This document shows, in pieces, positions 583 to 60,963 of a stretch of DNA of 64,000 nt. Under the pieces are notes generated by a model. It searched no databases. It saw only the letters and a list, made by a program, of their open reading frames with translations, and was not told where the DNA came from. The DNA comes from Krischvirus LF73P4, in the sequence record OZ035795.1. One strand, given 5' to 3'. The translations under genes were made by a program, and so were the position numbers. Every line of letters begins with the position of its first letter. Position 1 is the first letter of the stretch.

Positions 583-611
583 ATTGTAGGGGAGTTATCC
601 TCCCCTGTCAA
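583..611 (-). promoter_or_regulatory. sigma70-type early promoter (PeSL-like)
   Basis: minus strand TTGACA (606-611), 17-nt palindromic spacer GGGGAGGATAACTCCCC, TACAAT (583-588). Confidence 0.7.
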
Positions 612-625
612 CACTTTTTATAAAA

Positions 626-793
626 TTATTTGTTAATTTCTGGTGCGTTGCTCGGATAGTAACCTTCTTTAACACCCAGATATTTTGCAACCATCCCTAC
701 AATCTTCTGTGCTACTACAATGTCAAATTTCAGATAATCTTCGCCGTGGGTTTCAATGATATATGCTTCACATGCTGCTTTAGTCTCGAACAT
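626..793 (-). CDS. hypothetical protein (55 aa); paralog of 3896..4063; not in ORF track
   Basis: ATG at 791-793 with SD1; nucleotide sequence nearly identical to 3896-4063. Confidence 0.5.
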   Translation of the reverse strand: MFETKAACEAYIIETHGEDYLKFDIVVAQKIVGMVAKYLGVKEGYYPSNAPEINK

Positions 794-826
794 TTTGATT
801 CTCCTATTTCGTTTCGGTATGTGTGT

Positions 827-855
827 ATTATAGGGGATCTCCCGATCCCCGTCAA
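827..855 (-). promoter_or_regulatory. sigma70-type early promoter (PeSL-like)
   Basis: minus strand TTGACG (850-855), palindromic 17-nt spacer, TATAAT (827-832). Confidence 0.7.
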
Positions 856-869
856 CAACTTTTTTAAAA

Positions 870-1151
870 TTATTCGTGATTAGTTTCGATGTTGTGCATT
901 TTGCACCAGTTCAGCCAATCACCCAGATCCTGATAGTTAATGCTTTTATCTGCTGCCATCGTTTTTGTCTTGATACCCATATGTGCGTTATGAGTAAGCA
1001 TTTTTACAGTGAACTCAATTTTATCGCCTTTAGCTTTAACATCAACCAGTTTGGTCCACTGGCTACCAGCGCCGCGAATGTTCATACCAACGATGTTTCC
1101 GATGTATGCTTCTTTGTTTTTCAGGATTTCGGTTGCTTTGATGAATTTCAT
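870..1151 (-). CDS. hypothetical small early protein (93 aa)
   Basis: ATG 1149-1151 with SD1; promoter 1185-1213. Confidence 0.6.
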   Translation of the reverse strand: MKFIKATEILKNKEAYIGNIVGMNIRGAGSQWTKLVDVKAKGDKIEFTVKMLTHNAHMGIKTKTMAADKSINYQDLGDWLNWCKMHNIETNHE

Positions 1152-1184
1152 TTTTGATTCTCCAGTTCGTTTCGGTATGGGTGT

Positions 1185-1213
1185 ATTATGCTATGTTCTT
1201 ACTTTGGTGTCAA
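1185..1213 (-). promoter_or_regulatory. sigma70-type early promoter (PeSL-like)
   Basis: minus strand TTGACA (1208-1213), 17-nt spacer, CATAAT (1185-1190). Confidence 0.65.
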
Positions 1214-1222
1214 CAACTTTTT

Positions 1223-1492
1223 TTAGATATTTTCAGAAATAAATTTTAAAACTTGACGTAAATGTTTCTCATCTTTGATAGTCGCCGGAAGTTCTTCTTT
1301 TACTTCCTGTGCAAGATAGATATTTCCGTTCCAAGTGAAAGATCCGTCTTCGTTTACGCGATAGCTGAACATCCACTCGCAATCATTTTCGATTTCATAT
1401 ACACACAGAAGGGTGTAATCGTTAAAGCTATTGATTTCAAGGTCGAAGCCGTGACGTTTTGCAAAGTTGGTAGTGGTTTTAGTCAGTGCCAT
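1223..1492 (-). CDS. hypothetical small early protein (89 aa)
   Basis: ATG 1490-1492 with SD1; promoter 1533-1561. Confidence 0.6.
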   Translation of the reverse strand: MALTKTTTNFAKRHGFDLEINSFNDYTLLCVYEIENDCEWMFSYRVNEDGSFTWNGNIYLAQEVKEELPATIKDEKHLRQVLKFISENI

Positions 1493-1532
1493 TGTTTGAT
1501 TCTCCTAAGTGGTATCTCGTTTCGATGGGTTT

Positions 1533-1561
1533 ATTATGCTATAGGCGTGATCTGGTGTCAA
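1533..1561 (-). promoter_or_regulatory. sigma70-type early promoter (PeSL-like)
   Basis: minus strand TTGACA (1556-1561), 17-nt spacer, CATAAT (1533-1538); module nearly identical to 20628-20656. Confidence 0.65.
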
Positions 1562-1583
1562 CAACTTTTTTAAAATTTTATGC

Positions 1584-1610
1584 AATAAAAAAGCCGACAC
1601 TAAGGTCGGC
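1584..1610 (-). terminator. rho-independent terminator (minus strand)
   Basis: hairpin GCCGAC/GTCGGC followed on minus strand by a T-run; downstream of gene 1619..1927. Confidence 0.6.
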
Positions 1611-1618
1611 TAATAAAA

Positions 1619-1927
1619 TCAACGAGATAGATAATCGTTTTGCGCGATCTGGTCGGCGTATGCTGGTGTTATGTCAATCGCCAACACTTTAACGCGTGCT
1701 TTCTTGCGACCTGGGTTTTCTCGTAACCAGTGCTCATGACCGTACACATTTTTATATTTTGATGCGGTTTCGAAGGTACGGATCGGACCAGGGTAATCAG
1801 CGTAAAGGATCTCTAGGTCTTCTGTGATGTAAAAATATACGTTGTAATTGCTGTTCTCTAGCTTAAGCAGAGACTTTCGGAACATTGGGAGATTTTCGCG
1901 GGTAAATTCAAAGATATTATCTTTCAT
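1619..1927 (-). CDS. HxHW-motif family protein, paralog 1 of 6 (102 aa)
   Basis: C-terminal HEHWL ... VKVLAIDIT motif shared with five neighbouring ORFs; SD2-type context. Confidence 0.6.
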   Translation of the reverse strand: MKDNIFEFTRENLPMFRKSLLKLENSNYNVYFYITEDLEILYADYPGPIRTFETASKYKNVYGHEHWLRENPGRKKARVKVLAIDITPAYADQIAQNDYLSR

Positions 1928-1950
1928 AGTATTATCCTCAATAGTTGGAT

Positions 1951-1972
1951 GAAAAGGGGGGCTTAATGCCCC
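1951..1972 (-). terminator. terminator-like hairpin (minus strand)
   Basis: GGGGC-TTAAT-GCCCC hairpin followed by T-run on minus strand, just downstream of 1978..2265. Confidence 0.5.
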
Positions 1973-1977
1973 GTATA

Positions 1978-2265
1978 TTAAAACAGTCCTTCCTGTACAC
2001 CGTAGTAGAGTTCATCGCTGATAATTTCATTAATGCGACGGTGTGCATATTCCTGATTTGCGAAGTTGTCAGCAAGTTCTACTTTAGTTTCGCCGTCATG
2101 AGTCCATTTAGTGATAACTTTACCATCTGCAAATTTGAAGTTGAACTCTTTAGCTACTGCATCGCGTACCAGACGTGCGAACTTGTTGTTACGGATTGCA
2201 TTATCGGTTTCGTGTGCAGCGTGAGCAAATTTGTTAACTTTCAGAGTGATAGTAATGTATGCCAT
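1978..2265 (-). CDS. hypothetical protein (95 aa); paralog of 5297..5608 (AKEFN motif)
   Basis: ATG 2263-2265 with SD1; shares RxxVRxAxAKEFNxK segment with 5297..5608. Confidence 0.6.
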   Translation of the reverse strand: MAYITITLKVNKFAHAAHETDNAIRNNKFARLVRDAVAKEFNFKFADGKVITKWTHDGETKVELADNFANQEYAHRRINEIISDELYYGVQEGLF

Positions 2266-2311
2266 AATTTGATTCTCCTAGTTAGAAAGTGTATCTCGTT
2301 TCGATGGGTGT

Positions 2312-2340
2312 ATTATGCTATACACCCGACCTCATGTCAA
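2312..2340 (-). promoter_or_regulatory. sigma70-type early promoter (PeSL-like)
   Basis: minus strand TTGACA (2335-2340), 17-nt spacer, CATAAT (2312-2317). Confidence 0.65.
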
Positions 2341-2346
2341 CACTTT

Positions 2347-2625
2347 TTATAAAATAATTTTTTGATATTTTTCTATGATGTTCGTGTAATTCACATCAAC
2401 CGCTAGCACCGTTGCTTCGAATCCACCGTTTAGCCAATGGCTATGATCGTGATCGTGAAAGAAACCTAGACCAGTACGAAGACCTTCTTTATATTCGGCG
2501 CGTACATTCAGTTTGTCGTCGATAAACAGATAAAACCATGAATTTTTACTAGGATTGATGATACAACCTTTCAGATTAGGGAGAATATCACGACTAAGAA
2601 TAAACTTATCACCTACCTTGAACAT
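2347..2625 (-). CDS. HxHW-motif family protein, paralog 2 (start adjusted to ATG 2625)
   Basis: HDHDHSHWL ... VLAVDV motif; SD2 context GTGAGGACTAATATT-ATG. Confidence 0.6.
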   Translation of the reverse strand: MFKVGDKFILSRDILPNLKGCIINPSKNSWFYLFIDDKLNVRAEYKEGLRTGLGFFHDHDHSHWLNGGFEATVLAVDVNYTNIIEKYQKIIL

Positions 2626-2629
2626 AATA

Positions 2630-2950
2630 TTAGTCCTCACTTATAAGGTCAAACCAATTGTTTTTCGCATAATGCTTAATGCGTGCTTGATCTGCTTCCG
2701 CTGGTGATAGATTCCATGCAACCACTACAACTTCTGACGCATCGTCATCCGTTTCTGATACCCAATGATTATGATTCATACAATTGTTTGCTATCGCGTG
2801 AGCAAATGATCTCATTACCGGAGACGTATAATCATAGTAACGGATTTTCAGATTTTCATCAACGTACAAGTAGATCGTATACGGCTTATATTCAGTAACC
2901 AGTAACAGACAGTTACGCAATTCTGGGAAAATCTTTTTAGTTAATTTCAT
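2630..2950 (-). CDS. HxHW-motif family protein, paralog 3 (start adjusted to ATG 2950)
   Basis: NHNHWV ... VVVAWNL motif; SD2 context before internal ATG. Confidence 0.55.
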   Translation of the reverse strand: MKLTKKIFPELRNCLLLVTEYKPYTIYLYVDENLKIRYYDYTSPVMRSFAHAIANNCMNHNHWVSETDDDASEVVVVAWNLSPAEADQARIKHYAKNNWFDLISED

Positions 2951-2951
2951 T

Positions 2952-3161
2952 TTATAATCCTCGGTCGCGGCTATAGTACACGGTACGCCATACAATTTCA
3001 TGTTTCGTGTCGCTCCAGCACACGATCTCATTTACTCTTAAATCTTTGTTATCAACAAAAGATGAACATTGTGACGCTTCTTTCATCATTTTATCTGCTG
3101 TTTTCTCATCAAATACAGCACAGATTTCTTTATACACTCGATAATCTTTAAACTTGCTCAT
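2952..3161 (-). CDS. hypothetical protein, MSKFKDY family paralog A
   Basis: N-terminus MSKFKDYRVY... with KMMKEASQC segment shared with 3164..3373. Confidence 0.5.
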   Translation of the reverse strand: MSKFKDYRVYKEICAVFDEKTADKMMKEASQCSSFVDNKDLRVNEIVCWSDTKHEIVWRTVYYSRDRGL

Positions 3162-3163
3162 AA

Positions 3164-3373
3164 TTAACACCAATCAAGAGTTTTTGAGAAAACCTCTATC
3201 CATTGTTGAGTATATGCGGTTTCTTTCCATGAGACAATACCGGTAGAATAATGGTTTTTGTTTCCAGAAAAGGACGGGCATTTTGATGCATCTTCCATCA
3301 TCTTTTCCGCGAACTCTGGTTCGTATACTCGCAAGATCTGTTGATATGCTTTGTAGTCTTTAAATTTGCTCAT
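3164..3373 (-). CDS. hypothetical protein, MSKFKDY family paralog B
   Basis: N-terminus MSKFKDYKAY... KMMEDASKC; tandem to paralog A. Confidence 0.5.
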   Translation of the reverse strand: MSKFKDYKAYQQILRVYEPEFAEKMMEDASKCPSFSGNKNHYSTGIVSWKETAYTQQWIEVFSKTLDWC

Positions 3374-3638
3374 AATCGTTAACTACCTTATCAGCTTCTT
3401 TTATTGTTTTTACATCAACTGCGATAACCCGTAAAGGTTCGTCGTGGTTCCACCAATGATCGTGAATATCAGCTTGTGATTTATCACCAAAGGAATCACG
3501 AATATCATTTTTACATTTATAGCTAATGTGACCGTCATAGTCAACATAAAGGTAATTATCGAAAATCGGCGTTTTTAAGATCATGCCGAAAAATCTTTCT
3601 TTGTGTGTCTTATCCAGTGTTGCAGTAATTCGCATCAT
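3360..3638 (-). CDS. HxHW-motif family protein, paralog 4 (92 aa)
   Basis: HDHWWNH ... VIAVDV motif; SD2 context. Confidence 0.6.
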   Translation of the reverse strand: MMRITATLDKTHKERFFGMILKTPIFDNYLYVDYDGHISYKCKNDIRDSFGDKSQADIHDHWWNHDEPLRVIAVDVKTIKEADKVVNDYEQI

Positions 3639-3650
3639 AATATATTCCTC

Positions 3651-3830
3651 TTAGAAAGGGATGGTCATTTCTTGAGCTTGTACATTCTCGTTAGGATTAA
3701 ACTTCATCCAACCGATATTGTCTACCAGCATATGCACATTTTTATCATATCCTACGTGAGTAGTCAATACTAAATGTGCTTTACCTTCAACGATGATTTC
3801 CATGTACTTCTGAACTTCGATAGCTTTCAT
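3651..3830 (-). CDS. hypothetical protein (59 aa); not in ORF track
   Basis: ATG 3828-3830 with SD1 and promoter 3864-3892; uninterrupted 59 codons. Confidence 0.45.
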   Translation of the reverse strand: MKAIEVQKYMEIIVEGKAHLVLTTHVGYDKNVHMLVDNIGWMKFNPNENVQAQEMTIPF

Positions 3831-3863
3831 TTTTGATTCTCCGTTTGTTGTCTTGATGGGAGT

Positions 3864-3892
3864 ATATTACTACTCCCTTTAATCATTGTCAA
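3864..3892 (-). promoter_or_regulatory. sigma70-type early promoter (PeSL-like)
   Basis: minus strand TTGACA (3887-3892), 17-nt spacer, TAATAT (3864-3869); GGGAGTA/TACTCCC palindrome around -10. Confidence 0.65.
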
Positions 3893-3895
3893 CTA

Positions 3896-4063
3896 TTATT
3901 TGTTAATTTCCGGTGCGTTGCTCGGATAGTAACCTTCTTTAACACCCAGATATTTTGCGACCATTCCGGTGATCTTCTGTGCTACTACAATGTCAAATTT
4001 CAGGTAGTCTTCACCGTGGTTTGCTACAATGTATGCTTCGCATTCTGCTTTAGTCTGGAACAT
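3896..4063 (-). CDS. hypothetical protein (55 aa); paralog of 626..793
   Basis: ATG 4061-4063 with SD1; near-identical to 626-793 at nucleotide level. Confidence 0.5.
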   Translation of the reverse strand: MFQTKAECEAYIVANHGEDYLKFDIVVAQKITGMVAKYLGVKEGYYPSNAPEINK

Positions 4064-4097
4064 TTTTGATTCTCCTATATCTCGTTGGTATGTGTGT

Positions 4098-4126
4098 AGT
4101 ATAGGGGATCGGTGATCCCCTGTCAA
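4098..4126 (-). promoter_or_regulatory. sigma70-type early promoter (PeSL-like)
   Basis: minus strand TTGACA (4121-4126), palindromic spacer GGGGATCACCGATCCCC, TATACT (4098-4103). Confidence 0.7.
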
Positions 4127-4133
4127 CAACTTT

Positions 4134-4442
4134 TTATTCTTCATCTTCATCTTTATCTTGATATGCGTACTTCATAAATTTGTCTGCTACTTTGTCCGCG
4201 TTTTCAGGTTCTACGTCTGACGCTAGGACAACAGCTAGTTCGGTTTTGTCGTTTCCATCATACCAATGATTATGAGTGTCGTTTTCTTCGATATAAAACG
4301 AATCGTTTGGAGTTGTGCGACAATATACGTCTAAATTCCCATCGATATAAAAGATCCAATCCGAATACAAAATGATTGTTTTAGCAAGATTTTTATTGTC
4401 TCTTACAAAAGGTTCCGCGACAAATAGCTTAGTTTGTTCCAT
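4134..4442 (-). CDS. HxHW-motif family protein, paralog 5 (start adjusted to ATG 4442)
   Basis: THNHWY ... AVVLASDV motif; SD2 context. Confidence 0.55.
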   Translation of the reverse strand: MEQTKLFVAEPFVRDNKNLAKTIILYSDWIFYIDGNLDVYCRTTPNDSFYIEENDTHNHWYDGNDKTELAVVLASDVEPENADKVADKFMKYAYQDKDEDEE

Positions 4443-4458
4443 AATATTTTCCTCAAAA

Positions 4459-4650
4459 TTATACAGCTTCGTAAACTTCCCAATGTTCAGCACCAACACG
4501 CTTAACGAAAAGGTTTTCTTTGATGTTATTCATAAACGTCTGGATGGATTTAATGCGGTTGGAAGGTTTCCAGTCTTCGTTGGCATTGCGGCGATACATA
4601 ATAATATTACCAGTTCGCTTATATTCAGCAACCATTTTAAGACCACACAT
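4459..4650 (-). CDS. hypothetical protein (63 aa)
   Basis: ATG 4648-4650 with SD2 context; promoter 4699-4727. Confidence 0.5.
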   Translation of the reverse strand: MCGLKMVAEYKRTGNIIMYRRNANEDWKPSNRIKSIQTFMNNIKENLFVKRVGAEHWEVYEAV

Positions 4651-4698
4651 AATATTATCCTCAATTTGTGGGAGAGTATTACCCTCCCGATTATTGTT

Positions 4699-4727
4699 AT
4701 ACTACATTACGCAAAATGGCGTGTCAA
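4699..4727 (-). promoter_or_regulatory. sigma70-type promoter
   Basis: minus strand TTGACA (4722-4727), 17-nt spacer, TAGTAT (4699-4704); overlaps 3' end of upstream gene. Confidence 0.5.
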
Positions 4728-5027
4728 TGCTTCTTTTGCTGTTCCGCTAAGATTCTCGATCTCTCCTGGCATAACATCAACCGCCAGAACTTCTACAACA
4801 TCCTCTGATCCTAACCAGTGAGTATGACCTTTGTAGAACTTGATAATCAGACTACCTTCCTCATCCCATTTAACGCTATCGCTAGCCCACCACACATCAC
4901 CGTCGATAAAGTTGATGTAAAGCACACTACGCCACATTGAATTAATTACTTTCAATACTGCGCCTTTCATATCTTCCACGGTGTGGTCTTCCATTTTGAA
5001 GACCTCGCCTACCTGAACTTTTGCCAT
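4707..5027 (-). CDS. HxHW-motif family protein, paralog 6 (106 aa)
   Basis: GHTHWLG ... VLAVDV motif; SD2-like context. Confidence 0.6.
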   Translation of the reverse strand: MAKVQVGEVFKMEDHTVEDMKGAVLKVINSMWRSVLYINFIDGDVWWASDSVKWDEEGSLIIKFYKGHTHWLGSEDVVEVLAVDVMPGEIENLSGTAKEALTRHFA

Positions 5028-5044
5028 TTAGTCACCTCTCTTTA

Positions 5045-5224
5045 TTACATAACAATTACGCCAGCCGTTGAAAGTTGATGTTTCAACTGAGCATTTTCTG
5101 CTACTGTCAAATCAATGATTTCTTGTGACGCTGCAATCATATAGCCATTGGTGATATTGTTTTGCATCAGTTCAATGGTTTCTTCGTTGTAGCGGATTTT
5201 AGCGATGATTTCGTTGAAGTTCAT
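5045..5224 (-). CDS. hypothetical protein (59 aa); not in ORF track
   Basis: ATG 5222-5224 with SD1 and promoter 5259-5288. Confidence 0.45.
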   Translation of the reverse strand: MNFNEIIAKIRYNEETIELMQNNITNGYMIAASQEIIDLTVAENAQLKHQLSTAGVIVM

Positions 5225-5258
5225 AATTGATTCTCCTAGTTCGTTTCGGTATGTGTGT

Positions 5259-5288
5259 ATTATAGGGGAGTTTAACCTCCCCTGTCAA
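5259..5288 (-). promoter_or_regulatory. sigma70-type early promoter (PeSL-like)
   Basis: minus strand TTGACA (5283-5288), palindromic 18-nt spacer, TATAAT (5259-5264). Confidence 0.65.
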
Positions 5289-5296
5289 CAACTTTT

Positions 5297-5608
5297 TTAA
5301 AGTTTTTCCATGATAACGGTCATAATTACATCTTCTGCGCGAGCGGTCAGATTATCAGCGTCAGCATGTGGGCGGTTGGTTGTTACAGAGATAACACCGT
5401 TGCGCACTGGTTTGATATTGATATCAAGATGATCCGCGAAACGTTCGCCAGTTACAGAATGAATTTTGGTGTTAAATTCTTTTGCCAGTGCCTTGCGAAC
5501 TTCACGAATCAGGGTAGCGTTTTTCAGTTGGTTCTCCGCGCTCATGGTCTTCTGAGTGTTCATGGTTCCGTCGAAGTCAATCATTGGCAGCGTTACGATG
5601 TATTTCAT
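5297..5608 (-). CDS. hypothetical protein (103 aa); paralog of 1978..2265
   Basis: ATG 5606-5608 with SD1; AKEFN segment shared. Confidence 0.6.
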   Translation of the reverse strand: MKYIVTLPMIDFDGTMNTQKTMSAENQLKNATLIREVRKALAKEFNTKIHSVTGERFADHLDINIKPVRNGVISVTTNRPHADADNLTARAEDVIMTVIMEKL

Positions 5609-5651
5609 TTTTGATTCTCCTTAAGAAAGTGTGTTTCGTTTTGATGTGTGT

Positions 5652-5680
5652 AGTATAGGGGATCACCGATCCCCTGTCAA
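5652..5680 (-). promoter_or_regulatory. sigma70-type early promoter (PeSL-like)
   Basis: minus strand TTGACA (5675-5680), palindromic spacer, TATACT (5652-5657). Confidence 0.7.
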
Positions 5681-5688
5681 CAACTTTT

Positions 5689-6018
5689 TTATGATTTTAG
5701 TGAATTAACCACTACATCAAAATGATGTACAGAGCACACCTTATTAAACACATATTCATCGTGTTTAGGAATAGCCCCTAATCGCTCGATTTCGCTCGCT
5801 GACACGATAAACCGTTTATCAGGTGCATTTACCTTATATGCTTCAACAACGCACGGAAAACGCGTTTTAGAGAGTTCGGGATAGTTTTCTGACTCCATCA
5901 GGACAATGAATACCCTATTACATTGATTGTAGAATCCGGTTTTTGATTTCATCAAGTTTTCTTCTCTGTGAAATTCGTGCAATCTTCCTTTCATGATTTC
6001 GTTGGTTCTTGTCTTCAC
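5689..6018 (-). CDS. hypothetical protein; start uncertain (possible internal ATG at 5994 or 5952)
   Basis: ORF track; last gene of an overlapping operon. Confidence 0.45.
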   Translation of the reverse strand: MKTRTNEIMKGRLHEFHREENLMKSKTGFYNQCNRVFIVLMESENYPELSKTRFPCVVEAYKVNAPDKRFIVSASEIERLGAIPKHDEYVFNKVCSVHHFDVVVNSLKS

Positions 6019-6259
6019 AGTTTACCCACTCAACAAGGTCTTTGCCTAACTCGAAAGCCCATTCTCGGTCCTGCTTTACGTTTTGTAGGTATGGACTTTC
6101 CGACACTCGACGAAGTGATCTTGTCGTAACAAGAATGATCCCAGGAATGTTCGGATGTTCCTTTCCATATACAATAGGACGCGAGTCACTATCAATACCC
6201 TGTAAGAAGGTGTATCCTGAATCACTTAGGATCATATACATTTTCATTTCATCCATCAC
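5918..6259 (-). CDS. hypothetical protein (about 112 aa)
   Basis: ORF track; start overlaps stop of upstream gene (translational coupling). Confidence 0.5.
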   Translation of the reverse strand: MMDEMKMYMILSDSGYTFLQGIDSDSRPIVYGKEHPNIPGIILVTTRSLRRVSESPYLQNVKQDREWAFELGKDLVEWVNCEDKNQRNHERKIARISQRRKLDEIKNRILQSM

Positions 6260-7191: not shown

Positions 7192-7201
7192 TCTATATTC
7201 C

Positions 7202-54346: not shown

Positions 54347-54354
54347 GGTATAAT

Positions 54355-54636: not shown

Positions 54637-54660
54637 ATACCTTCTTTGGAGGGTGAATTT

Positions 54661-55134: not shown

Positions 55135-55137
55135 TGG

Positions 55138-55166
55138 TTGACAATAAGAAATGGGAGTAGTAAAAT
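55138..55166 (+). promoter_or_regulatory. sigma70-type early promoter (PeSL-like)
   Basis: TTGACA (55138-55143), 17-nt spacer, TAAAAT (55161-55166). Confidence 0.65.
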
Positions 55167-55197
55167 ACTCCCATCTAATCAAGAAGGAGAATCAACA

Positions 55198-55470: not shown

Positions 55471-55484
55471 TAGAGGATTATATT

Positions 55485-56051
55485 ATGGTACAGAAAACGT
55501 ATAAATTGTATCCGGCTAAGTCTTCAAATGATGCTGTTTTTGAACGAGGTCGTTATTACACTTTCCGTAATGCTGAGTCCGCAGTGGAATTTGTTAAACG
55601 CTATCCACAACATAACAAATTCCTGCATGATGTGCTTCGCAATGGCTTTAAAGTTCTGACGGTTAATGTTATGGGTAAAGTGTATTTGGTAGAAACTCAT
55701 GATTATGAGGGCGCGTCAATAATGATTGATGCAAGCGAGCGAAAATACTTTAAACGCATCACTAAAAAGCAGTTTGAAGAAATGAAACCAGTTAAGAAAG
55801 AAGAATCTCTGGAAGACCTGATTAACTTGTTTGCGAAGTCTTCTTTGGTGTCATTGACGCTGGAAGATTTTAGCTTTGATAATCAGCTATACTTTAAAAA
55901 TGCAGATGACTTGAAAGATTTTCTGATTGAGAATAAACCTAAGCTAGAAACCTATATCAAAGGTGAGCTTAAGCGCATGGAACATCAAGCAAAATATAGC
56001 GCCGATAAAGTAGCTGAACTGAAAGAGATCCAAAAGTCATTTAACGCTTGA
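55485..56051 (+). CDS. hypothetical protein, GFKVL/ERKYFKRI family member
   Basis: exact SD2 context; RNGFKVLTV and ERKYFKRITK segments. Confidence 0.5.
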   Translation: MVQKTYKLYPAKSSNDAVFERGRYYTFRNAESAVEFVKRYPQHNKFLHDVLRNGFKVLTVNVMGKVYLVETHDYEGASIMIDASERKYFKRITKKQFEEMKPVKKEESLEDLINLFAKSSLVSLTLEDFSFDNQLYFKNADDLKDFLIENKPKLETYIKGELKRMEHQAKYSADKVAELKEIQKSFNA

Positions 56052-56076
56052 CATGATGAAACGGGAGTAGTAAGAT
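56048..56076 (+). promoter_or_regulatory. sigma70-type early promoter (PeSL-like)
   Basis: TTGACA (56048-56053) overlapping upstream stop, 17-nt spacer, TAAGAT (56071-56076). Confidence 0.65.
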
Positions 56077-56107
56077 ACTCCCATCTAAACAACGAGAGGA
56101 TTATATT

Positions 56108-57286
56108 ATGGCTAAATTCTTTGAAGGTCATTACTATGCATTCCGTGAAGGCGGTAAAGATGAGTTTCTAGACTTTTCTCGCTATTCAATTATTCTGACC
56201 GATGCTTCGCGCCGTGGTCATATTCGGGTTGCTGAAATCGTAGAAAAGGGCTTTAAAGTATTAGAAAAAGATGACCACGGTCATGTTATTACTATTGAAG
56301 CTGGAGATGTAGTTTATTCCGCTAATGATATTGTTGATTATTGGGCTACTATGATTATGAACAATGAGCGCAAATACTTTAAACGTATCTCAAAAGAGGC
56401 ATACGAAGCGATGAACAAGAAAGAGGATGCAATGCCGACTTACTTTGAAAAAGGTAAATGTTATTCGTTTACCCCAGAAGGTTTGCAAGAATTTAAGCGA
56501 TTCTGGGGAGAGCATGACCCAGAGCACAAAGAAGCTATGAAACTTGTTGATTTTGTCGAATATGGCTTTTTAGTTGAAGAAGAATTGCACGGATCAGCTA
56601 CCATGATCACCGCGAAAGGTGAAACTGTTAAGGCAGATCGTTTTTGTGACCAATGGAATTGCTTGTTTGACGGTAGCGAATTTGAATACTTCGCGGAAAT
56701 CACGCGAGTTGAATATGTCCGTATGCAGGAGCGTGGTCAGAGATTTAAAGTAGGCGAACGCTACAAACCAAATCCACATAATTTGCCTCATTGGTTTAAC
56801 ACTGAAACCGTATCCAGTCATGTTATTGAAATTGTTCAAAAGCTGGAACATGGATTTAAGGTAACTAAAGTAGATTCTTTCGGAAGTGTTGACGCGGTTG
56901 AAATTGATGGTGTAGAATATACACCGAAATCTTTCGGGCTTTGCTGGTATCACTTGATCAGCAATGATGAACGTTATAACTTTGTTGAACTGCCATCTGA
57001 ACCGGAAGAAGCACTAGAAGATCATGATCATCTGTCTGAACTGGTTAAGCTGTTTGGTGATCTGCCGGATGGTGTGGGTGTTGCGGTAATGGGTGAAGGT
57101 ACTGTTATTCGCAACCTGAAAGACCTTAAAAAGTTCTTGATCGACATGCTTCCTAAACTCGATGAGAATCTAGATACAGATATTCAGAATCGCAAAGAAA
57201 TTGTTAAAGAGACTGAAAAAGAGATCGAAGAGATTCGAGCAATTCGCCAGAAGGTGAAAGCAGTAAAGAAAAAAGTTAGTGTTTGA
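56108..57286 (+). CDS. hypothetical protein with internal repeats, GFKVL/ERKYFKRI family (392 aa)
   Basis: repeated GFKVL/GFLVE/GFKVT units and NERKYFKRISK; C-terminus similar to 55485..56051. Confidence 0.5.
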   Translation: MAKFFEGHYYAFREGGKDEFLDFSRYSIILTDASRRGHIRVAEIVEKGFKVLEKDDHGHVITIEAGDVVYSANDIVDYWATMIMNNERKYFKRISKEAYEAMNKKEDAMPTYFEKGKCYSFTPEGLQEFKRFWGEHDPEHKEAMKLVDFVEYGFLVEEELHGSATMITAKGETVKADRFCDQWNCLFDGSEFEYFAEITRVEYVRMQERGQRFKVGERYKPNPHNLPHWFNTETVSSHVIEIVQKLEHGFKVTKVDSFGSVDAVEIDGVEYTPKSFGLCWYHLISNDERYNFVELPSEPEEALEDHDHLSELVKLFGDLPDGVGVAVMGEGTVIRNLKDLKKFLIDMLPKLDENLDTDIQNRKEIVKETEKEIEEIRAIRQKVKAVKKKVSV

Positions 57287-57310
57287 CATGCGAAGGGAGT
57301 ATGCTATAAT
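57283..57310 (+). promoter_or_regulatory. sigma70-type early promoter (PeSL-like)
   Basis: TTGACA (57283-57288), 16-nt spacer, TATAAT (57305-57310). Confidence 0.65.
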
Positions 57311-57340
57311 ACTCCCACTTAACAACGAGAGGATTATATT

Positions 57341-57835
57341 ATGTGGGTACAAGATGTTTGGTATACTGTAACTAAAGAAAACCTTGACGCATTCAGCGAC
57401 CAATCTTGCGCTAATAGCTCAATTGCTGGTATACTTACTGATGTGTTTGGTGGTGTTGATAAAATTCGTTTTAAAGTTGTTGTTAGTTCGATGGGGCATG
57501 TGCAAGATCTTTACACCGAAGATAAAGACCTTGATCTTGAACTTCGTCTTCGTATTGAGAATGCAAGTCTAGGTTATTGGTTTGAAGATAACGAGTATGA
57601 ATACTTCACACCAGCAATTAAAGTTTTTGCAACTAAACTGGAAGCTGTACTAAATCTCCGACCAATTAATGTTGACGGTTACATTATCAAAAATATTCAG
57701 GAGTGGGATTCATATCTAGATCAGATTATCCGAAATAGTAAGCAGGAAGCCGCTAATAAGAAGCGACAAGAGATCAAACAACTGAAAGCTGAACTGGAAG
57801 CGGCGGAAAAAGAATTAGCAGAACTGGTAAAATAA
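57341..57835 (+). CDS. hypothetical protein (164 aa) with C-terminal coiled coil
   Basis: exact SD2 context. Confidence 0.5.
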   Translation: MWVQDVWYTVTKENLDAFSDQSCANSSIAGILTDVFGGVDKIRFKVVVSSMGHVQDLYTEDKDLDLELRLRIENASLGYWFEDNEYEYFTPAIKVFATKLEAVLNLRPINVDGYIIKNIQEWDSYLDQIIRNSKQEAANKKRQEIKQLKAELEAAEKELAELVK

Positions 57836-57844
57836 CTATCAACG

Positions 57845-57867
57845 AGCGGGAGAAATCCCGCTTTTTC
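57845..57867 (+). terminator. rho-independent terminator (AGCGGGA-GAAA-TCCCGCT)
   Basis: hairpin followed by TTTTTC. Confidence 0.6.
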
Positions 57868-57879
57868 ATAGGTGATACA

Positions 57880-59742
57880 ATGGAAAAACTAATCAAAGAC
57901 ATTACAGAGATCGCAACGGGTAAAGAAAACGAAGTAAGCAAAGAGAACGCGAACAAAGACGCGCGAACATTCCCGACACGTCGAGATCTGATTGCTGGTG
58001 CTGTGTCTAAACAGATTGCTAAAACCGTGTTACCTGAGCACATCTATAAAGCGCATGTAGACGGTGACATTCATTATCATGATATGGATTATGCACCCGC
58101 TATGCCGTTTACTAACTGCTGTCTTGTTAATCTCAAAGACATGTTAGAGAATGGTTTTAAATTGGGTAGCGCACAAATCGAAAGTCCGAAATCAATCGGC
58201 GTTGCTTGTGCTGTAACCGCTCAAATTATCGCACAGGTGGCAAGTCATCAATATGGCGGGACCACAATTGCAAACATCGATCAGGTTTTAGCGCCATACG
58301 TTGAGAAAACATATCATAAACACCTTGCTGATGCCGAAACCTACGGAATCAAAGCGGATACTCTCTATGCACAAGAGAAGACAGAAAAAGAAACGCTAGA
58401 CGGGTATCAAGCGTTGGAATATGAAATCAACACTTTGTTCTCCACCAACGGTCAAACACCTTTTGTGACTTTAACATTTGGTATGGGTACTAGCTGGGAA
58501 GAAAAACTGATTCAGAAAGCGATCCTGAACGTTCGAACTAAAGGTTTAGGTAAAGATGGTATCACTCCGGTGTTTCCTAAGCTGGTGATGTTCTTAGAAG
58601 AAGGATTAAACCTTAAACCGGAAGATCCGAACTACGACATTAAGCAACTTGCATTGGAATGTTCTAGTAAGCGTCTTTACCCTGATTATATCTCTGCGAA
58701 GAATAACCGTAGTATCACCGGATCTAGTGTTCCGGTTAGCCCGATGGGTTGTCGTAGCTTCCTGGGTGTGTGGCATAATGAGAAAGGCGAAGAAGTATTA
58801 GACGGACGTAATAACTTAGGTGTTGTGACTCTGAATCTTCCGCGTATTGCCCTTATTGCCGCTCGTCGTGCTGGTAAAGCGTCTGTAATGCGCAGAATTG
58901 AGCTATTCGAACAAGAGCTAGCTAATCGTATGCCTATTTGCTTTGATGCGCTCATGAGTCGCGTAGACGCTTTAAAAGGGGCTAAAGCCAATGTTGCTCC
59001 GGTGCTGTATACAGAAGGTGCATTTTTCCGTATTCATCAAAACGATGAAATTTTGGAAGTGCTGAAAGATGGTCGCGCTAGTATCTCTCTTGGATATATT
59101 GGTTTACATGAGGTATTGAGCGTCCTGTTTGGTGTTCATCCGTTTGATTCGGAAGATGCGCAGCGATACGGTAAACATATTCTTAAGATCTTGCGTCATT
59201 ATACTGAAAAATGGAAGGACGAAACCGGACTTGGGTTTAGTCTTTACGGTACTCCAGCCGAGAGCCTTTGCTATCGATTTAATCGACTGGACCGAGAGCA
59301 ATTTGGTATTGTTAAGGGTGCTACCGATAAAGACTGGTACACCAACTCATTCCACCTTGACGTAGACCGGAAAGTCACACCGTTTGAGAAAATCGACTTT
59401 GAGAAAGATTATCACTGGCTGGCGTCCGGTGGCATGATCTCTTATGTTGAGTTCCCAGACATGAAAAACAACCTGAAAGGTCTTGAAACTGTAGTAGACT
59501 ATGCAATGGATAAATTGCACTACTTCGGTGTTAATACTCCTTCTGATGTATGTCATGTATGCGGATCTAATAAGGAAATGAGAGCGACCGAGTCTGGTTT
59601 TGTTTGCCCTGATTGCGGCAATGACAATCTGGAAAAGATGAATGTTATCCGTCGCGTTAGTGGATATCTTGGATCTGTTGATCTGCGTCCATTTAACCAC
59701 GGGAAACACTCCGAGATGGTAAACCGCGTTAAGCACATGTAA
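57880..59742 (+). CDS. nrdD: anaerobic ribonucleoside-triphosphate reductase (class III)
   Basis: C-terminal CPDCG zinc ribbon and RRVSGYLG glycyl-radical motif; 620 aa. Confidence 0.95.
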   Translation: MEKLIKDITEIATGKENEVSKENANKDARTFPTRRDLIAGAVSKQIAKTVLPEHIYKAHVDGDIHYHDMDYAPAMPFTNCCLVNLKDMLENGFKLGSAQIESPKSIGVACAVTAQIIAQVASHQYGGTTIANIDQVLAPYVEKTYHKHLADAETYGIKADTLYAQEKTEKETLDGYQALEYEINTLFSTNGQTPFVTLTFGMGTSWEEKLIQKAILNVRTKGLGKDGITPVFPKLVMFLEEGLNLKPEDPNYDIKQLALECSSKRLYPDYISAKNNRSITGSSVPVSPMGCRSFLGVWHNEKGEEVLDGRNNLGVVTLNLPRIALIAARRAGKASVMRRIELFEQELANRMPICFDALMSRVDALKGAKANVAPVLYTEGAFFRIHQNDEILEVLKDGRASISLGYIGLHEVLSVLFGVHPFDSEDAQRYGKHILKILRHYTEKWKDETGLGFSLYGTPAESLCYRFNRLDREQFGIVKGATDKDWYTNSFHLDVDRKVTPFEKIDFEKDYHWLASGGMISYVEFPDMKNNLKGLETVVDYAMDKLHYFGVNTPSDVCHVCGSNKEMRATESGFVCPDCGNDNLEKMNVIRRVSGYLGSVDLRPFNHGKHSEMVNRVKHM

Positions 59743-59747
59743 TTTTC

Positions 59748-59775
59748 AGCCGATCCGAAAGGGTCGGCTTTTTCG
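59748..59775 (+). terminator. rho-independent terminator
   Basis: GCCGATCC-GAAA-GGGTCGGC hairpin followed by TTTTTCGTTTT. Confidence 0.7.
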
Positions 59776-59785
59776 TTTTGGGGTG

Positions 59786-59813
59786 TTGACAACCTGATTA
59801 GCTAATGTATAAT
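59786..59813 (+). promoter_or_regulatory. sigma70-type early promoter
   Basis: TTGACA (59786-59791), 16-nt spacer, TATAAT (59808-59813). Confidence 0.65.
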
Positions 59814-59842
59814 GCTCACATCGAAAACAACGAGAGGACAAC

Positions 59843-60385
59843 ATGATGATGATGTTTTGTGTACTGAGCAAAGAAGTTAAACTTCGTAAACTGGAAATTG
59901 GCGATGGTGTTGTTGTTAAAATGCACGCTAGCACATTGGCTAGTTTTAATTTAAAGGAAAGTTTTTTTATTAGAGGAACGGTGGTTAATATCTGCTGGAG
60001 TCAAGGCGAAGGAATCCGTAGCTTTTGCGTAATTGACGATGATAATAACCTGTATGTGATTCGCTATCATAATAATTCTGTATTGGTCTATACCGACAAT
60101 TCACGAGAATTATATACTCTTGAATTTGTTAAGCGTACTGATTGCGACCGATTTGTTCGTGCTTATGAAGAAGATGGCTGTTTTGCGACTGAAACAGAAA
60201 CAAATGAATATGTTCCTATGGAAGTAGGGGCAGAAATTAAACACAAGATCACGGATCGTATTTTTAAGGTTGTGGCGGTTGCTCATACTCAATTTGTAGC
60301 GCAAGCGCCGGATGAAGAATTTATTATCTACAATATTGGTAATGCAAGTTCTCATTTTCATAATGTACTATATCGCGACCTTTGA
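59843..60385 (+). CDS. hypothetical protein (180 aa)
   Basis: SD CGAGAGGACAAC-ATG. Confidence 0.5.
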   Translation: MMMMFCVLSKEVKLRKLEIGDGVVVKMHASTLASFNLKESFFIRGTVVNICWSQGEGIRSFCVIDDDNNLYVIRYHNNSVLVYTDNSRELYTLEFVKRTDCDRFVRAYEEDGCFATETETNEYVPMEVGAEIKHKITDRIFKVVAVAHTQFVAQAPDEEFIIYNIGNASSHFHNVLYRDL

Positions 60386-60402
60386 TAATGTGTGAGGTGA
60401 AT

Positions 60403-60930
60403 ATGAAATCATTAAACCGTAAGCGTAAAGCACAACGACACAAAGAACGAGCTAAAAAGATTGCTATTGAACTGGTTGAGCGTGAGGATAGCTATTTGTC
60501 TACGGGTCGTTTGTATACATTCCATGCATTGATTGATGGTAAGCTAGTGTTGCATAATCATGATTGTTTGGCACTGTTTCACGAGATCGAACCAATCCAT
60601 CGTGAATGGGATGACAACAAAGCAAAAGGACAATATTTCCTTACTTGTTCGTGTGGTCATGCTGGATGTGCTGGATATTGGGAACCTGTTACTATCCGTG
60701 AGAAAAATGATACCATTCAATGGGTCGCCCGTACCCGCGATGGTTATGATAAAGGTGCTGATGGTACTGGCGATAACGTAGTTTACTTTAATCGTGATTG
60801 GTATTATATGGCGCGATGTATGATCCTGTTTTATCTTGACTCGATGCCGTATGAATATTTCAGTTTCCAGAATGGGACCGAACTGACAGGGAAGGAATGG
60901 TCTGACTACATTCGAAAAAATTTAAAATAA
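60403..60930 (+). CDS. hypothetical protein (start adjusted to ATG 60403)
   Basis: SD2-like GTGAGGTGAAT-ATG; ORF track 60382..60930. Confidence 0.5.
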   Translation: MKSLNRKRKAQRHKERAKKIAIELVEREDSYLSTGRLYTFHALIDGKLVLHNHDCLALFHEIEPIHREWDDNKAKGQYFLTCSCGHAGCAGYWEPVTIREKNDTIQWVARTRDGYDKGADGTGDNVVYFNRDWYYMARCMILFYLDSMPYEYFSFQNGTELTGKEWSDYIRKNLK

Positions 60931-60934
60931 ATGC

Positions 60935-60963
60935 TTGACGGGGATCGCGAGATCCCCTATACT
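60935..60963 (+). promoter_or_regulatory. sigma70-type early promoter (PeSL-like)
   Basis: TTGACG (60935-60940), palindromic spacer GGGATCGCGAGATCCCC, TATACT (60958-60963). Confidence 0.7.

Follow-up and report, generated by a model that had tools for sequence, protein, structure and literature searches.

Regulatory modules of the window

The analyzed window, a 64,000-nucleotide stretch of Krischvirus LF73P4 (OZ035795.1), comes from an RB49-like T4-type coliphage of the genus Krischvirus; it is 92-97% identical to phage ECD7 and collinear with it within blocks. A curated catalogue of the window contains 36 regulatory modules (Table 1), in keeping with the at least 35 transcription units of the original prediction. 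The order within a module is a TTGACA-type -35 element, a spacer of 16-18 nt, a -10 element, an A/C-rich leader, a Shine-Dalgarno sequence (SD) and ATG. Modules were included if the -35 element had no more than one mismatch, the spacer was 16-18 nt long, the -10 element fitted xAxxxT, and the promoter lay 18-60 nt upstream of the SD and ATG of an ORF; the SD and start codon at the 3' end of all 36 modules follow from this construction. Every module is co-oriented with the genes; the strand changes at ~29.8 kb, with 20 minus-strand modules before this point and 16 plus-strand modules after it. The spacer is 17 nt long in 32 modules, and the leader from the -10 element to ATG measures 18-60 nt (median, 33.5).

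Such promoters are strongly over-represented. The pattern TTGACA-N16-18-TATAAT has 8 matches in the window versus 0.11 expected, and TTGACA-N17-TANNNT has 23 versus 1.2 expected, a count attained in none of 100 shuffles. Positions 1-20000 contain 16 promoter-like sites that agree with the consensus at 11 or more of 12 positions, every one of them on the coding (minus) strand. The most conserved columns of the modules are the -35 element, the -10 element and the SD. The upstream consensus is taaaAaaattttaAAAAAGtTG-TTGACA, with stop codons visible upstream, and the leader following the -10 element has the consensus ACaCcCATCaAaAc; the string CATCGAAAC is exact in 10 modules and present in a degenerate form in 16 of the 36. 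Both predicted ribosome-binding contexts were found, the GGAGAATCAAA-like one (class A) in 24 of 36 modules and the GAGGATTATATT-like one (class B) in 7, with the other 5 fitting neither. Downstream ORFs have a median length of 91 aa, and the neighboring genes are mostly annotated as "hypothetical protein".

Table 1. Promoter modules and associated features of the window. PeSL, promoter-early stem-loop; J1-J3, junctions of the putative inversions.
Position	Strand	Element	Hairpin or terminator	SD	Remarks
540-611	-	PeSL	Spacer, GGGGAGGATAACTCCCC (MFE -15.7, z -3.7)	Class A	83-aa ORF
791-855	-	PeSL	Spacer, GGGGATCGGGAGATCCCC	Class A	55-aa ORF paralogous to 3896-4063
1149-1213	-	PeSL-type promoter, -10 CATAAT	No strong hairpin	Class A	
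1490-1561	-	PeSL-type promoter	Canonical terminator 1592-1611, ~30 nt upstream	Class A	1533-1561 (-35 to -10) = 20628-20656
2263-2340	-	PeSL	Spanning -10, GGGTGTATAGCATAATACACCC	Class A	
3828-3892	-	PeSL	Spanning -10, GGGAGTAGTAATATACTCCC	Class A	
4061-4126	-	PeSL	Spacer, GGGGATCACCGATCCCC	Class A	RB49 PeSL206/205 ortholog
4648-4727	-	Early promoter	No promoter hairpin	Class B, GAGGATAATATT	
5222-5288	-	PeSL	In 18-nt spacer	Class A	
5606-5680	-	PeSL	Spacer, GGGGATCGGTGATCCCC	Class A	5' of ORF210 homolog; J1 (overlap 5605-5698); inverted-repeat partner 51229-51310
7698-7758	-	PeSL	Spacer, CGGGGA-GAAA-TCCCCG	Class A	ECD7 breakpoint (window lacks gp38-like ORF)
7981-8051	-	PeSL-type promoter	Weak/imperfect, over -10	Class A	
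9234-9294	-	PeSL	Canonical terminator 9307-9334 adjoining -35	Class A	
12834-12899	-	Early promoter TTGACT	No hairpin	Other	
12923-13345	-	regB endoribonuclease gene		Own SD region GGATAATAAAA	PF10715, E 1e-48
13683-13745	-	PeSL	Spanning -10, GGGGGTAGTAATATACCCCC	Class A-like	
19605-19678	-	PeSL	Spanning -10, GGGTGTATAGCATAATACACCC	Class A	
20327-20387	-	PeSL	Spacer	Class A-like	20359-20387 (-35 to -10) = 583-611
20579-20656	-	PeSL-type promoter	Terminator ~30 nt upstream	Class A	20628-20656 (-35 to -10) = 1533-1561
22136-22198	-	PeSL	Spanning -10	Class A	
22580-22648	-	PeSL	Terminator T-run adjoining -35	Class A	
24743-24851	-	R_L, 109-bp late-gene upstream repeat			J2
32846-32912	+	Consensus early promoter	No hairpin		5' of gene 32 homolog
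33941-34002	+	PeSL-type	Canonical terminator 33889-33913 upstream	Class B	ECD7 breakpoint
36492-36520	+	PeSL remnant, no -35/-10	CGGGGAGAAATCCCCG	Class A-like	Heads DUF4326 ORF absent from ECD7
39087-39136	+	PeSL	Spacer		Left flank of C5-methylase cassette
39980-40042	+	PeSL	Spacer, = 39087 copy	Class B	Right flank of C5-methylase cassette
42247-42302	+	PeSL	Terminator adjoining -35	Other	
42526-42590	+	PeSL	Spanning -10, one G-U pair	Class A	
42807-42876	+	PeSL	Spanning -10	Class A	Flanks 49-aa ORF, replaced in ECD7
43032-43096	+	PeSL	Spanning -10	Class A-like	
51239-51312	+	PeSL	Spacer, GGGGATCACGTATCCCC	Class A	RB49 PeSL211/210 match; J3 (overlap 51219-51313)
51913-51978	+	PeSL	Spanning -10, 9-10 bp (z -4.5)	Class B	
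53013-53105	+	Weaker early promoter TTGACT-18-TAACAT		Class B	
55138-55200	+	PeSL	Spanning -10	Class A	
56048-56110	+	PeSL	Spanning -10	Class B	392-aa ORF
57283-57343	+	PeSL	Spanning -10, 16-nt spacer	Class B	
59786-59845	+	PeSL	Terminator adjoining -35	Other	
60935-61008	+	PeSL	Spacer, GGGGATCGCGAGATCCCC	Class A	

Relation to known PeSLs and cassette-bounded exchange

Promoter-early stem-loops were defined in RB49 and phi1, which belong to the same clade (Arbiol et al., 2010, PMC2839356). All the sequence features that define them were found in the window: an AT-rich tract 5' of the -35 element, a sigma70 promoter close to consensus, a stem-loop of the GN-loop-CN form at the published positions (between the boxes, overlapping either box, 5' of the -35 element or 3' of the -10 element), and an SD with ATG, the whole preceding small ORFans of the hyperplastic regions. 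The stretch 51215-51320 is identical to RB49 PeSL211/210 in promoter, hairpin and leader, the sole difference being a 2-nt AC indel just 5' of the SD. The stretch 4055-4140 is orthologous to PeSL206/205, from which it is set apart by a loop in the opposite orientation and a single base of the -10 element, and PeSL210/209 likewise has an orthologous or near-identical counterpart. The modules of the window are thus very probably (about 0.9) PeSLs, the composite regulatory cassettes of RB49-type (genus Krischvirus) T4-like phages. Since the window is from a Krischvirus, the clade is the published one and individual RB49 elements are matched, the predicted correspondence to the mobile PeSL cassettes of T4-type phages is supported, and the finding is a rediscovery of a system already described.

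The same scan of the full ECD7 genome revealed 56 modules, 38 of them in segments homologous to the window, which is the same density as the 51-52 PeSLs published for RB49/phi1 (PMC2839356). The predicted "genome-wide" array is overstated, the modules being clustered at 30-65 kb and 120-137 kb of ECD7, i.e., in the hyperplastic regions. Sharing genus, architecture and a hyperplastic location upstream of ORFans with the RB49/phi1 PeSLs, the window elements differ from them in nothing of kind. The PeSLs/PmSLs of T4/PST and KVP40/nt-1 (Comeau et al., 2014, PMC4122927) are also promoter-terminator composites bounding variable genes of hyperplastic regions, whereas their promoters have diverged (TTTACW, TTGYVH), their stems have other sequences and their stem-loops lie mostly 5' of the promoter; the window elements, as in RB49, have a sigma70 consensus that is nearly perfect and stems made of a G-run and a C-run. 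Neither RegB nor inversions are mentioned in the two PeSL papers (PMC2839356, PMC4122927). Beyond these papers, two modest additions are suggested by the sequence: a RegB/S1-target-like SD in the cassettes, next to a second SD class with no RegB match, and a putative large rearrangement with junctions in cassettes, where a PeSL pair would bound an inversion of 45.6 kb instead of a local indel.

The near-consensus host sigma70 promoter (A-rich tract, GTTG-TTGACA, 17 bp, TATAAT/CATAAT/TAAGAT) would fire immediately upon infection. RB49 orthologs have demonstrated promoter activity; among them, the PeSL206/205 promoter was tested by lacZ fusion (PMC2839356). Transcription would start at the A following a C-rich discriminator, giving a short, weakly structured A/C-rich leader; the RB49 early consensus, in which position -12 is T or C and positions -3 to -1 are C-rich, agrees with 5'-end mapping (PMC1524935).

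Some cassettes are near-identical copies. As predicted, 583-611 and 20359-20387 match exactly, with identity reaching ~43 bp, and so do 1533-1561 and 20628-20656; the other claimed copies were also found at their coordinates. Two ECD7 cassette copies are identical over ~88 bp, positions 5609-5690 and 51229-51310 form inverted-repeat arms of 82 nt with 95% identity, and a 55-aa gene cassette is present in duplicate (the ORF of the 791-855 module and its paralog 3896-4063). Near-identity over 40-90 bp would permit exchange by the phage recombination machinery, leading to the insertions, deletions, duplications and replacements of flanked genes seen in comparisons with relatives. Six or seven of the 12 breakpoints between the window and ECD7 fall in PeSLs, which occupy 4.9% of the window; if gene boundaries are taken as the only possible breakpoints (a PeSL is present at 36 of 131), the enrichment is modest, with p ~0.03-0.08 as an estimate from the single ECD7 comparison. 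Of 58 relatives, 3 have the C5-methylase cassette, which is flanked by two identical PeSLs, and the PeSL-bounded positions 4135-5227 are missing from the relatives L006 and L011. Comparison of cassette-flanked gene content among relatives, as originally proposed, thus revealed indels bounded by cassettes.

In outline, these elements resemble integron gene cassettes, which are also small single-gene modules with short structured repeats, excised as circles and reinserted. An integron cassette, with its attC hairpin, is a promoterless ORF, whereas each window cassette brings its own promoter. The window cassettes are not members of integrons: both an integrase and attC/attI are lacking, and exchange would proceed by general homologous recombination.

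Independent convergence on a strong promoter and a strong RBS would make the cassettes alike without their being homologous, mobile or drivers of shuffling, and selection alone could hold the conserved -35, -10 and SD columns near consensus. This explanation is highly improbable and largely refuted, as the ~43-bp identity extends over unconstrained spacer loops, leader and upstream tract, the 88-bp copies and 82-nt arms are longer still, and presence/absence polymorphisms are bounded by cassettes. Moreover, mini-circles were demonstrated in RB49 and phi1, with PeSL211/210 among the elements forming them (PMC2839356).

Compared with more than 58 collinear relatives, two nested putative inversions were observed in this window alone. 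Junctions J1 and J3 fall in a PeSL pair, which would bound the 45.6-kb inversion, and J2 falls in the repeat R_L, which is common to gp3 and gp36 in relatives and at J2 joins the gp35 terminator to gp3. It is rather probable that this order is an artefact of assembly or merging, in which contig ends in the shared repeats were joined to wrong partners: all three junctions are exactly within repeats, the order can be reasoned to be precisely the other Eulerian path in a graph containing these two repeat pairs, no junction was found in any other record or contig searched, and k=31 contigs obtained independently for this strain end inside the PeSL or R_L repeats. However, the junctions are seamless and contain no duplicated k-mer, and the longest exact stretch shared by the PeSL pair is only 55 nt because the loops differ between the two copies, which is less than the k-mers or reads of most current assemblers. 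Genuine inversions would also fit the complete regulatory unit kept at every junction, with which the genome should be viable, and the second inversion would be mechanistically natural, since the first turns the two PeSLs into inverted repeats. The rearrangement at cassettes, the non-spacer majority of hairpins and the hyperplastic clustering were all absent from the original prediction.

Hairpins of the cassettes

Hairpins were found in 30 modules, and 6 modules have none. The hairpin is a palindromic spacer in 11 of the 36 modules, sometimes taking in the last -35 base, and has the -10 element in its loop in 12; in 7 modules, a canonical terminator hairpin lies 0-30 nt 5' of the -35 element. 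The predicted palindromic spacers are genuine, but "frequently" holds for only these 11 modules, most hairpins lying outside the spacer. The 23 internal hairpins have MFE values of -10 to -16 kcal/mol. An MFE of -8 kcal/mol or lower was found in 26 of the 36 modules versus 18% of random 43-mers, with z < -2 in 21 modules. Compensatory pair changes were detected across 31 sources; in the formal covariation analysis, double-sided changes were counted in 3 of 8 pairs, with a score of 0.46 versus 0.13 and none of 500 shuffles scoring as high. The set had been pre-selected for pairing, and hence only the double-sided changes are informative, not the 100% pairing.

As the hairpin is always 5' of the predicted start site of its own cassette, it would exist only in read-through RNA from the upstream unit. 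There it would attenuate or terminate transcription or cap the 3' end, insulating each small gene. Termination rests on one published reporter assay, in which the RB49 PeSL211/210 stem-loop cut lacZ expression as strongly as rrnB T1 (PMC2839356). None of the spacer or -10-spanning hairpins was called by the terminator scan and no U-run follows them, so that canonical intrinsic termination lacks sequence support for 23 of the 30 hairpins.

This lack of U-runs and terminator calls would also be expected if the G/C-rich palindromes acted mainly as DNA, being cruciform or hairpin hot spots of recombination, or as RNA 3'-end caps, and not as terminators. In the DNA-level version they would be substrates, e.g., for endonuclease VII or template switching, and recombinogenicity would be a designed property instead of a side effect of the homology between repeats. 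The stems are perfect palindromes, and the loops of otherwise identical hairpins are reverse-complementary (GGGGATC-ACC-GATCCCC at 4104-4120 and GGGGATC-GGT-GATCCCC at 5658-5674), the expected trace of a palindrome flip. An endonuclease VII gene is present in the window, the crossover of an RB49 mini-circle was mapped within the loop, and a targeted recombination pathway was raised by Arbiol et al. (PMC2839356). Nevertheless, we regard this role as unlikely, given the lacZ assay and the presence of hairpin-less cassettes at breakpoints as well, e.g., at 33941. The compensatory changes do not discriminate between the two explanations, as they fit RNA and DNA structure alike.

Two SD classes and RegB

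The class A site AGGAGAATCAAA was found in 24 of 36 cassette genes and in only 1 of 95 other genes. GGAGAAUCAAA, the SD in two thirds of cassettes, matches at 10 of 11 positions GGAGRAYARAA, the RegB/S1 cleavage consensus in the SD regions of T4 early genes (Durand et al., 2006, PMC1702504; Uzan and Miller, 2010, PMC3014915). The class B SD has no match to this consensus. Sites with GGAG and at most one mismatch over 11 nt were found in 18 of 36 cassette genes and in none of the 95 others (Fisher p = 1.5e-12). In ECD7, 24 of 28 such 11-mers are SDs, 22 of those with a promoter within 60 nt, and the reversed-sequence control gave 0. The view of the two RBS contexts as distinct kinds is thereby borne out and sharpened, one class resembling the RegB/S1 target.

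All 24 class A SDs contain GGAG, i.e., the invariant GGA and the preferred G at position 4. Positions 5-11 (AAUCAAA versus RAYARAA) match at 6 of 7, with no C at positions 5 and 6, where C is rare in RegB/S1 targets, or at position 9, where C does not occur in them. RegB/S1 targets are single-stranded; with an assumed start site, little structure is predicted for the 5' ends (MFE -1.5 to -7.9 kcal/mol over 56-73 nt), and the mean unpaired probability over the RegB-like site is 0.59. Class A sites share with the T4 RegB/S1 sites a GGAG in the SDs of early genes and the A-rich stretch after it; they differ by a C at position 8, where T4 strongly prefers A. The RegB of RB49 is divergent from that of T4, and the RB49 regB SD, GGAU, is cleaved (PMC1702504, PMC3014915); the SD of regB in the window is of this autoregulatory GGAU type. 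Given the C at position 8 and the divergent RB49 RegB, cleavage of class A sites remains putative.

As judged from sequence, class A may mark RegB-sensitive and class B RegB-resistant mRNAs. The RegB encoded in the window would cut class A messages in the SD soon after infection, resulting in a short burst of ORFan expression, while the GAGGAUUAUAUU class would escape RegB and remain translatable. Alternatively, the two contexts may have no regulatory meaning and mark two copied lineages of cassettes or leaders, with the SD hitch-hiking. Near-confinement of class A to cassettes with the same leader, as if the 3' half were copied whole, and occurrence of class B at 9 internal genes without promoters are compatible with this possibility. 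It is considered doubtful, however, because class A fits an independently defined 11-nt nuclease target, the phage encodes RegB, the regB SD obeys a rule of GGAU plus a strict A-rich stretch, and the same arrangement is functional for T4 early genes.

Promoter/stem-loop cassettes of the window

The window matched 58-90 phage records (megablast, window searched in three thirds). Almost all of these records belong to Escherichia/Shigella Krischvirus, including RB49, JSE, ECD7, and FL20, with 92-97% identity, and none of them reached 80% coverage of any third. Genes were called in a strand-aware manner; all lie on the minus strand below ~29.8 kb and on the plus strand above it. A module was accepted if it had a -35 box with at most one mismatch, a 16-18 nt spacer, a -10 box of the form xAxxxT, and, 18-60 nt downstream, the Shine-Dalgarno sequence (SD) and ATG of a called gene; eight weak intragenic candidates were dropped. 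The resulting catalogue comprises 36 modules (20 minus-strand, 16 plus-strand), each of which reads in the same direction as the genes. The motif TTGACA-N16-18-TATAAT was observed 8 times in the window (0.11 expected) and TTGACA-N17-TANNNT 23 times (1.2 expected). Positions 1-20000 contain 16 promoter-like sites that match the consensus at 11 or more of 12 positions, and all 16 are on the coding strand. The same family was independently recovered by repeat finding, as repeats D1-D14 and I1-I25. The copies named in the original prediction are present at the coordinates given there, and those early in the window read as reverse complements: 583-611 is identical to 20359-20387, with ~43 identical bases counting flanks, and 1533-1561 to 20628-20656.

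Promoter-early stem-loops (PeSLs) were described in RB49 and phi1 as an AT-rich tract, a sigma70-consensus promoter, a polyG/polyC stem-loop in one of five alternative positions, and an SD with ATG; each genome has 51-52 of them, mostly in hyperplastic regions and upstream of ORFans (PMC2839356). RB49 intergenic regions 211/210, 206/205, and 210/209 align with modules of the window. The module at 51239 is identical to PeSL211/210 over promoter, hairpin, and leader, with one 2-nt indel before the SD, and the module at 4126 is an ortholog of PeSL206/205. Terminator activity, promoter activity, and mini-circle formation were tested for the matching elements in RB49 (PMC2839356). By sequence match, PeSL membership of the window modules is established, which supports the PeSL interpretation originally proposed. 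The array itself is confirmed, but its description as genome-wide was overstated: the same scan found 56 modules in ECD7, 38 of them in segments homologous to the window, and the window owes its many PeSLs to the hyperplastic regions that follow one another in it. PeSLs are a known phenomenon. They are re-identified here in the genus of their first description, and one more genome's set of published elements carries little weight by itself. The gain is a quantified catalogue of 36 elements with three hairpin geometries and compensatory stem changes; an SD resembling the RegB target and putative cassette-bounded inversions are added as leads for specialists in T4 phages.

Upstream of the -35 box, the modules have an A-rich tract with the consensus end AAAAAGtTG. 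The -10 boxes are TATAAT, CATAAT, TATACT, or TAAGAT, followed by the consensus ACaCcC-ATCaAaAc. This fits the early consensus of RB49, which has T or C at -12 and C-rich positions -3 to -1 and is in agreement with mapped 5' ends (PMC1524935). MotA-type middle promoters were discounted on published grounds, as RB49-type phages have neither motA nor a middle-promoter consensus (PMC1524935).

The palindromic spacers described earlier are real, but they were found in only 11 of 36 modules, and the remaining modules have another geometry or none. In 12 modules, a hairpin spans the -10 box, with a 7-10 bp stem, the -10 hexamer within the loop, and the discriminator as 3' arm. Seven modules have a canonical terminator (stem and T-run) adjoining the -35 box or ~30 nt upstream, and six have no hairpin. 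Promoter regions folding at -8 kcal/mol or below were found in 26 of 36 modules, vs. 18% of random 43-mers, and 21 of 36 had z < -2 relative to dinucleotide shuffles. Compensatory exchanges in the stems include GC to TA, GC to CG, and AT to GC in either direction, with G-U intermediates (31 sources). A single consensus structure for all hairpins was rejected, as subclasses differ in hairpin register by half a step or a full one; each register was counted separately. For one register, double-sided changes were found by formal count in 3 of 8 pairs; covariation there was 0.46 vs. 0.13 in shuffles (0 of 500 as high), with sequences pre-selected for pairing, so that only double changes are informative.

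All hairpins lie upstream of the cassette's own predicted start site, so that their only possible targets are read-through RNA and DNA. The 23 internal hairpins all lack a U-run after the stem, and the terminator scan called none of them. Searches of the whole window with Rfam (gathering threshold) and ARAGORN gave no match; by Rfam, the leader thus belongs to no catalogued RNA family.

Canonical terminators at 43497-43514 and 57840-57858 (hairpin with T-run) have a GGGAGAAATCCC core with a GNRA-type GAAA loop, and three PeSLs, at 7758, 39087, and 39980, have this core in their spacer hairpins. The shared core suggests a common origin of terminator hairpins and promoter-embedded hairpins. The spacers 4104-4120 and 5658-5674 are palindromes (arms GGGGATC and GATCCCC) that are identical except for a reverse-complemented loop, ACC in the first and GGT in the second. 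The same reversal exists between RB49 PeSL206/205 and PeSL210/209. Such a pattern would be expected from a hairpin flip or from exchange between oppositely oriented copies.

Ribosome-binding contexts and the RegB target

Two ribosome-binding contexts had been noticed, and both were recovered. Class A, a GGAGAATCAAA-like SD, was found at 24 of the 36 cassette genes, and class B, a GAGGATTATATT-like SD, at 7. Among the other 95 genes, the class A-like SD was found once, at the remnant 36492-36520, and the class B-like SD at 9. The leaders are predicted to be weakly structured.

The T4 RegB/S1 target is the 11-mer GGAGRAYARAA, and GGAU is cut only when a strict A-rich stretch comes next (PMC1702504; PMC3014915). 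Of the 11 positions of this target, class A matches 10, the exception being a C at position 8; class B has four mismatches. GGAG with at most one mismatch over the 11-mer was found at 18 of 36 cassette genes and at none of the 95 others (p = 1.5e-12). The complete ECD7 genome has 28 such 11-mers, of which 24 serve as SDs, 22 of these 24 with a promoter within 60 nt; the reversed-sequence control gave none. The regB gene is encoded in the window, and the SD region of regB itself, GGATAATAAAA, conforms to the GGAU rule, as reported for RB49 (PMC3014915).

From these matches, we infer that class A cassettes would be RegB-sensitive, with burst expression, and class B cassettes RegB-resistant. The PeSL SD appears to be a near-consensus RegB/S1 target, and the cassette may encode both a switch-on (sigma70 promoter) and a switch-off (RegB cleavage) of its ORFan. 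If so, the cassette SD would be a built-in RegB shut-off signal. The two PeSL papers (PMC2839356, PMC4122927) make no mention of RegB.

The class B sequence AUUAUAUUAUG resembles T4 RegA operators such as AAAUUAUG, which is taken as a lead only; the GAGGATTATATT-ATG context is also similar to these operators in AU-richness around AUUAUG. GAGGATTATATT-ATG was also found at promoter-less internal genes (7202-7399, 18353-18673, 47030-47536, and 55485-56051), including a dCMP deaminase homolog. It is thus a general translation-initiation motif of the phage rather than a cassette component.

Order of the window relative to other Krischvirus genomes

The window is non-collinear with any of more than 58 Krischvirus genomes. 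Placement on the complete ECD7 genome by local blastn gave four segments separated by three junctions, J1, J2, and J3 (see table).

Segments, junctions, and selected elements of the window
Feature	Window	ECD7	Orientation	Description
Segment aligned with ECD7	2-5698	120373-126045	+	local blastn
Segment aligned with ECD7	5609-24851	44306-64228	+	local blastn
Segment aligned with ECD7	24743-50860	151764->126055	-	local blastn
Segment aligned with ECD7	51219-64000	44395->31569	-	local blastn
Junction J1	5605-5698			half of putative reciprocal exchange, PeSL downstream of gp071 x PeSL211/210
Junction J2	24743-24851			within 109-bp repeat R_L; its copies in relatives precede gp3 and gp36 and are inverted with respect to each other
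Junction J3	51219-51313			other half of the same reciprocal exchange as J1
NUMOD4/HNH homing-endonuclease ORF	14921-15514			197 aa; inserted relative to ECD7, without PeSL
Decayed-cassette-like element	36492-36838			hairpin CGGGGAGAAATCCCCG and class A-like SD, without -35 or -10
C5-cytosine DNA methylase, N-terminal part	39134-39730			Pfam PF00145
C5-cytosine DNA methylase, second frame	39210-39983			overlaps the first; contains C-terminal GNAIVP motif

The observed order is reproduced by two nested inversions relative to ECD7. The first would have occurred between the 109-bp inverted repeats upstream of gp3 and gp36, inverting ~87 kb and turning a PeSL211/210-type cassette pair into inverted repeats. 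The second would have occurred between those two PeSLs and covered 45.6 kb (window 5.6-51.2 kb). The PeSL pair of J1 and J3 forms 88-bp identical direct repeats in ECD7; in the window, it is an inverted repeat of 82 nt with 95% identity, 45.5 kb apart. R_L, in minus-strand sense, has 100% identity to one ECD7 copy and 93% to the other, with two small hairpins (GTGCCTCCGGCAC and GTCGCAAAGCGAC) just ahead of a late-promoter-like box, TAATAAATA; the repeat may be to late genes what the cassettes are to early ones.

We put the probability that the two nested inversions are real, and set the source phage apart from every other sequenced Krischvirus, at roughly one in three. Misassembly is a plausible source of this order, since it is exactly the alternative path through the repeat graph. 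Two features speak against misassembly: the seamless junctions, and an exact match of just 55 nt between the PeSL copies, whose loops differ. Simple contig concatenation was ruled out, as each junction holds a single seamless copy of its repeat.

No junction-spanning record was found among 58 phage records (megablast). Exact patterns gave no matches for J1, J2, and J3 in IMG/VR or for J1 and J2 in JGI metagenomes; the canonical-junction control gave 2 matches in IMG/VR. The flanking 103-aa and gp3 proteins were found only in canonical contexts among the ten listed for each, and exact-protein look-up returned no record for the 198-aa and 109-aa junction ORFs. The 87-aa and gp35 proteins had exact matches only in k=31 Logan contigs ending within repeats. 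Public reads of the same strain appear to exist (ERR12949693). The k=31 Logan contigs of this run are identical to the window where compared and end inside PeSL and R_L, and so are uninformative on linkage. If the two inversions are real, short regulatory cassettes, early PeSLs together with a late-gene analogue, would re-orient a quarter to half of a T4-type genome. Their role would then go beyond the shuffling of single ORFans, with all transcription units left intact.

Gene content at and outside cassettes

In total, 12 breaks were found in the alignment of the window with ECD7. Six of them lie in curated PeSLs, which cover 4.9% of the window, and one more in the promoter-less remnant 36492-36520. 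Relative to a stricter gene-boundary null (36 of 131 boundaries with a PeSL), this single-genome enrichment is modest. Breakpoint statistics for loci L005-L014 were contaminated by locus ends, so only internal breakpoints were used, qualitatively. Positions 4135-5227, with a PeSL at either end, are missing from two metagenomic relatives (L006 and L011). Two copies, 89% identical, exist of a 55-aa gene together with the PeSLs on its flanks (625-796 and 3895-4066).

An 850-bp insert (39115-39967) between two identical PeSLs contains a C5-cytosine methylase ORF (Pfam E = 5e-19). Of 58 relatives, just 3 have the insert here, and in the others the flanks are contiguous. The split of the methylase over two frames points to a frameshift, which may reflect a pseudogene, a sequencing error, or recoding. 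In the KMB43 relative, the methylase looks intact and is 5 nt longer across the same stretch. A 75%-identical copy was found in a Cronobacter phage.

At 36492-36838, the PeSL hairpin and SD head a DUF4326 ORF that is inserted between thymidylate synthase and nrdA and absent from ECD7. This arrangement resembles a decayed cassette.

Some of the breakpoints outside PeSLs are explained by homing endonucleases, such as that of the NUMOD4/HNH ORF. An HNH gene of ECD7 is missing at window 47836-47862. Three or four paralogous ORFs, each of roughly 160-270 aa, form a tandem family at 61662-63958, with near-identical N-termini (ATGAAATGGGAA...) and the internal repeats D15-D17.
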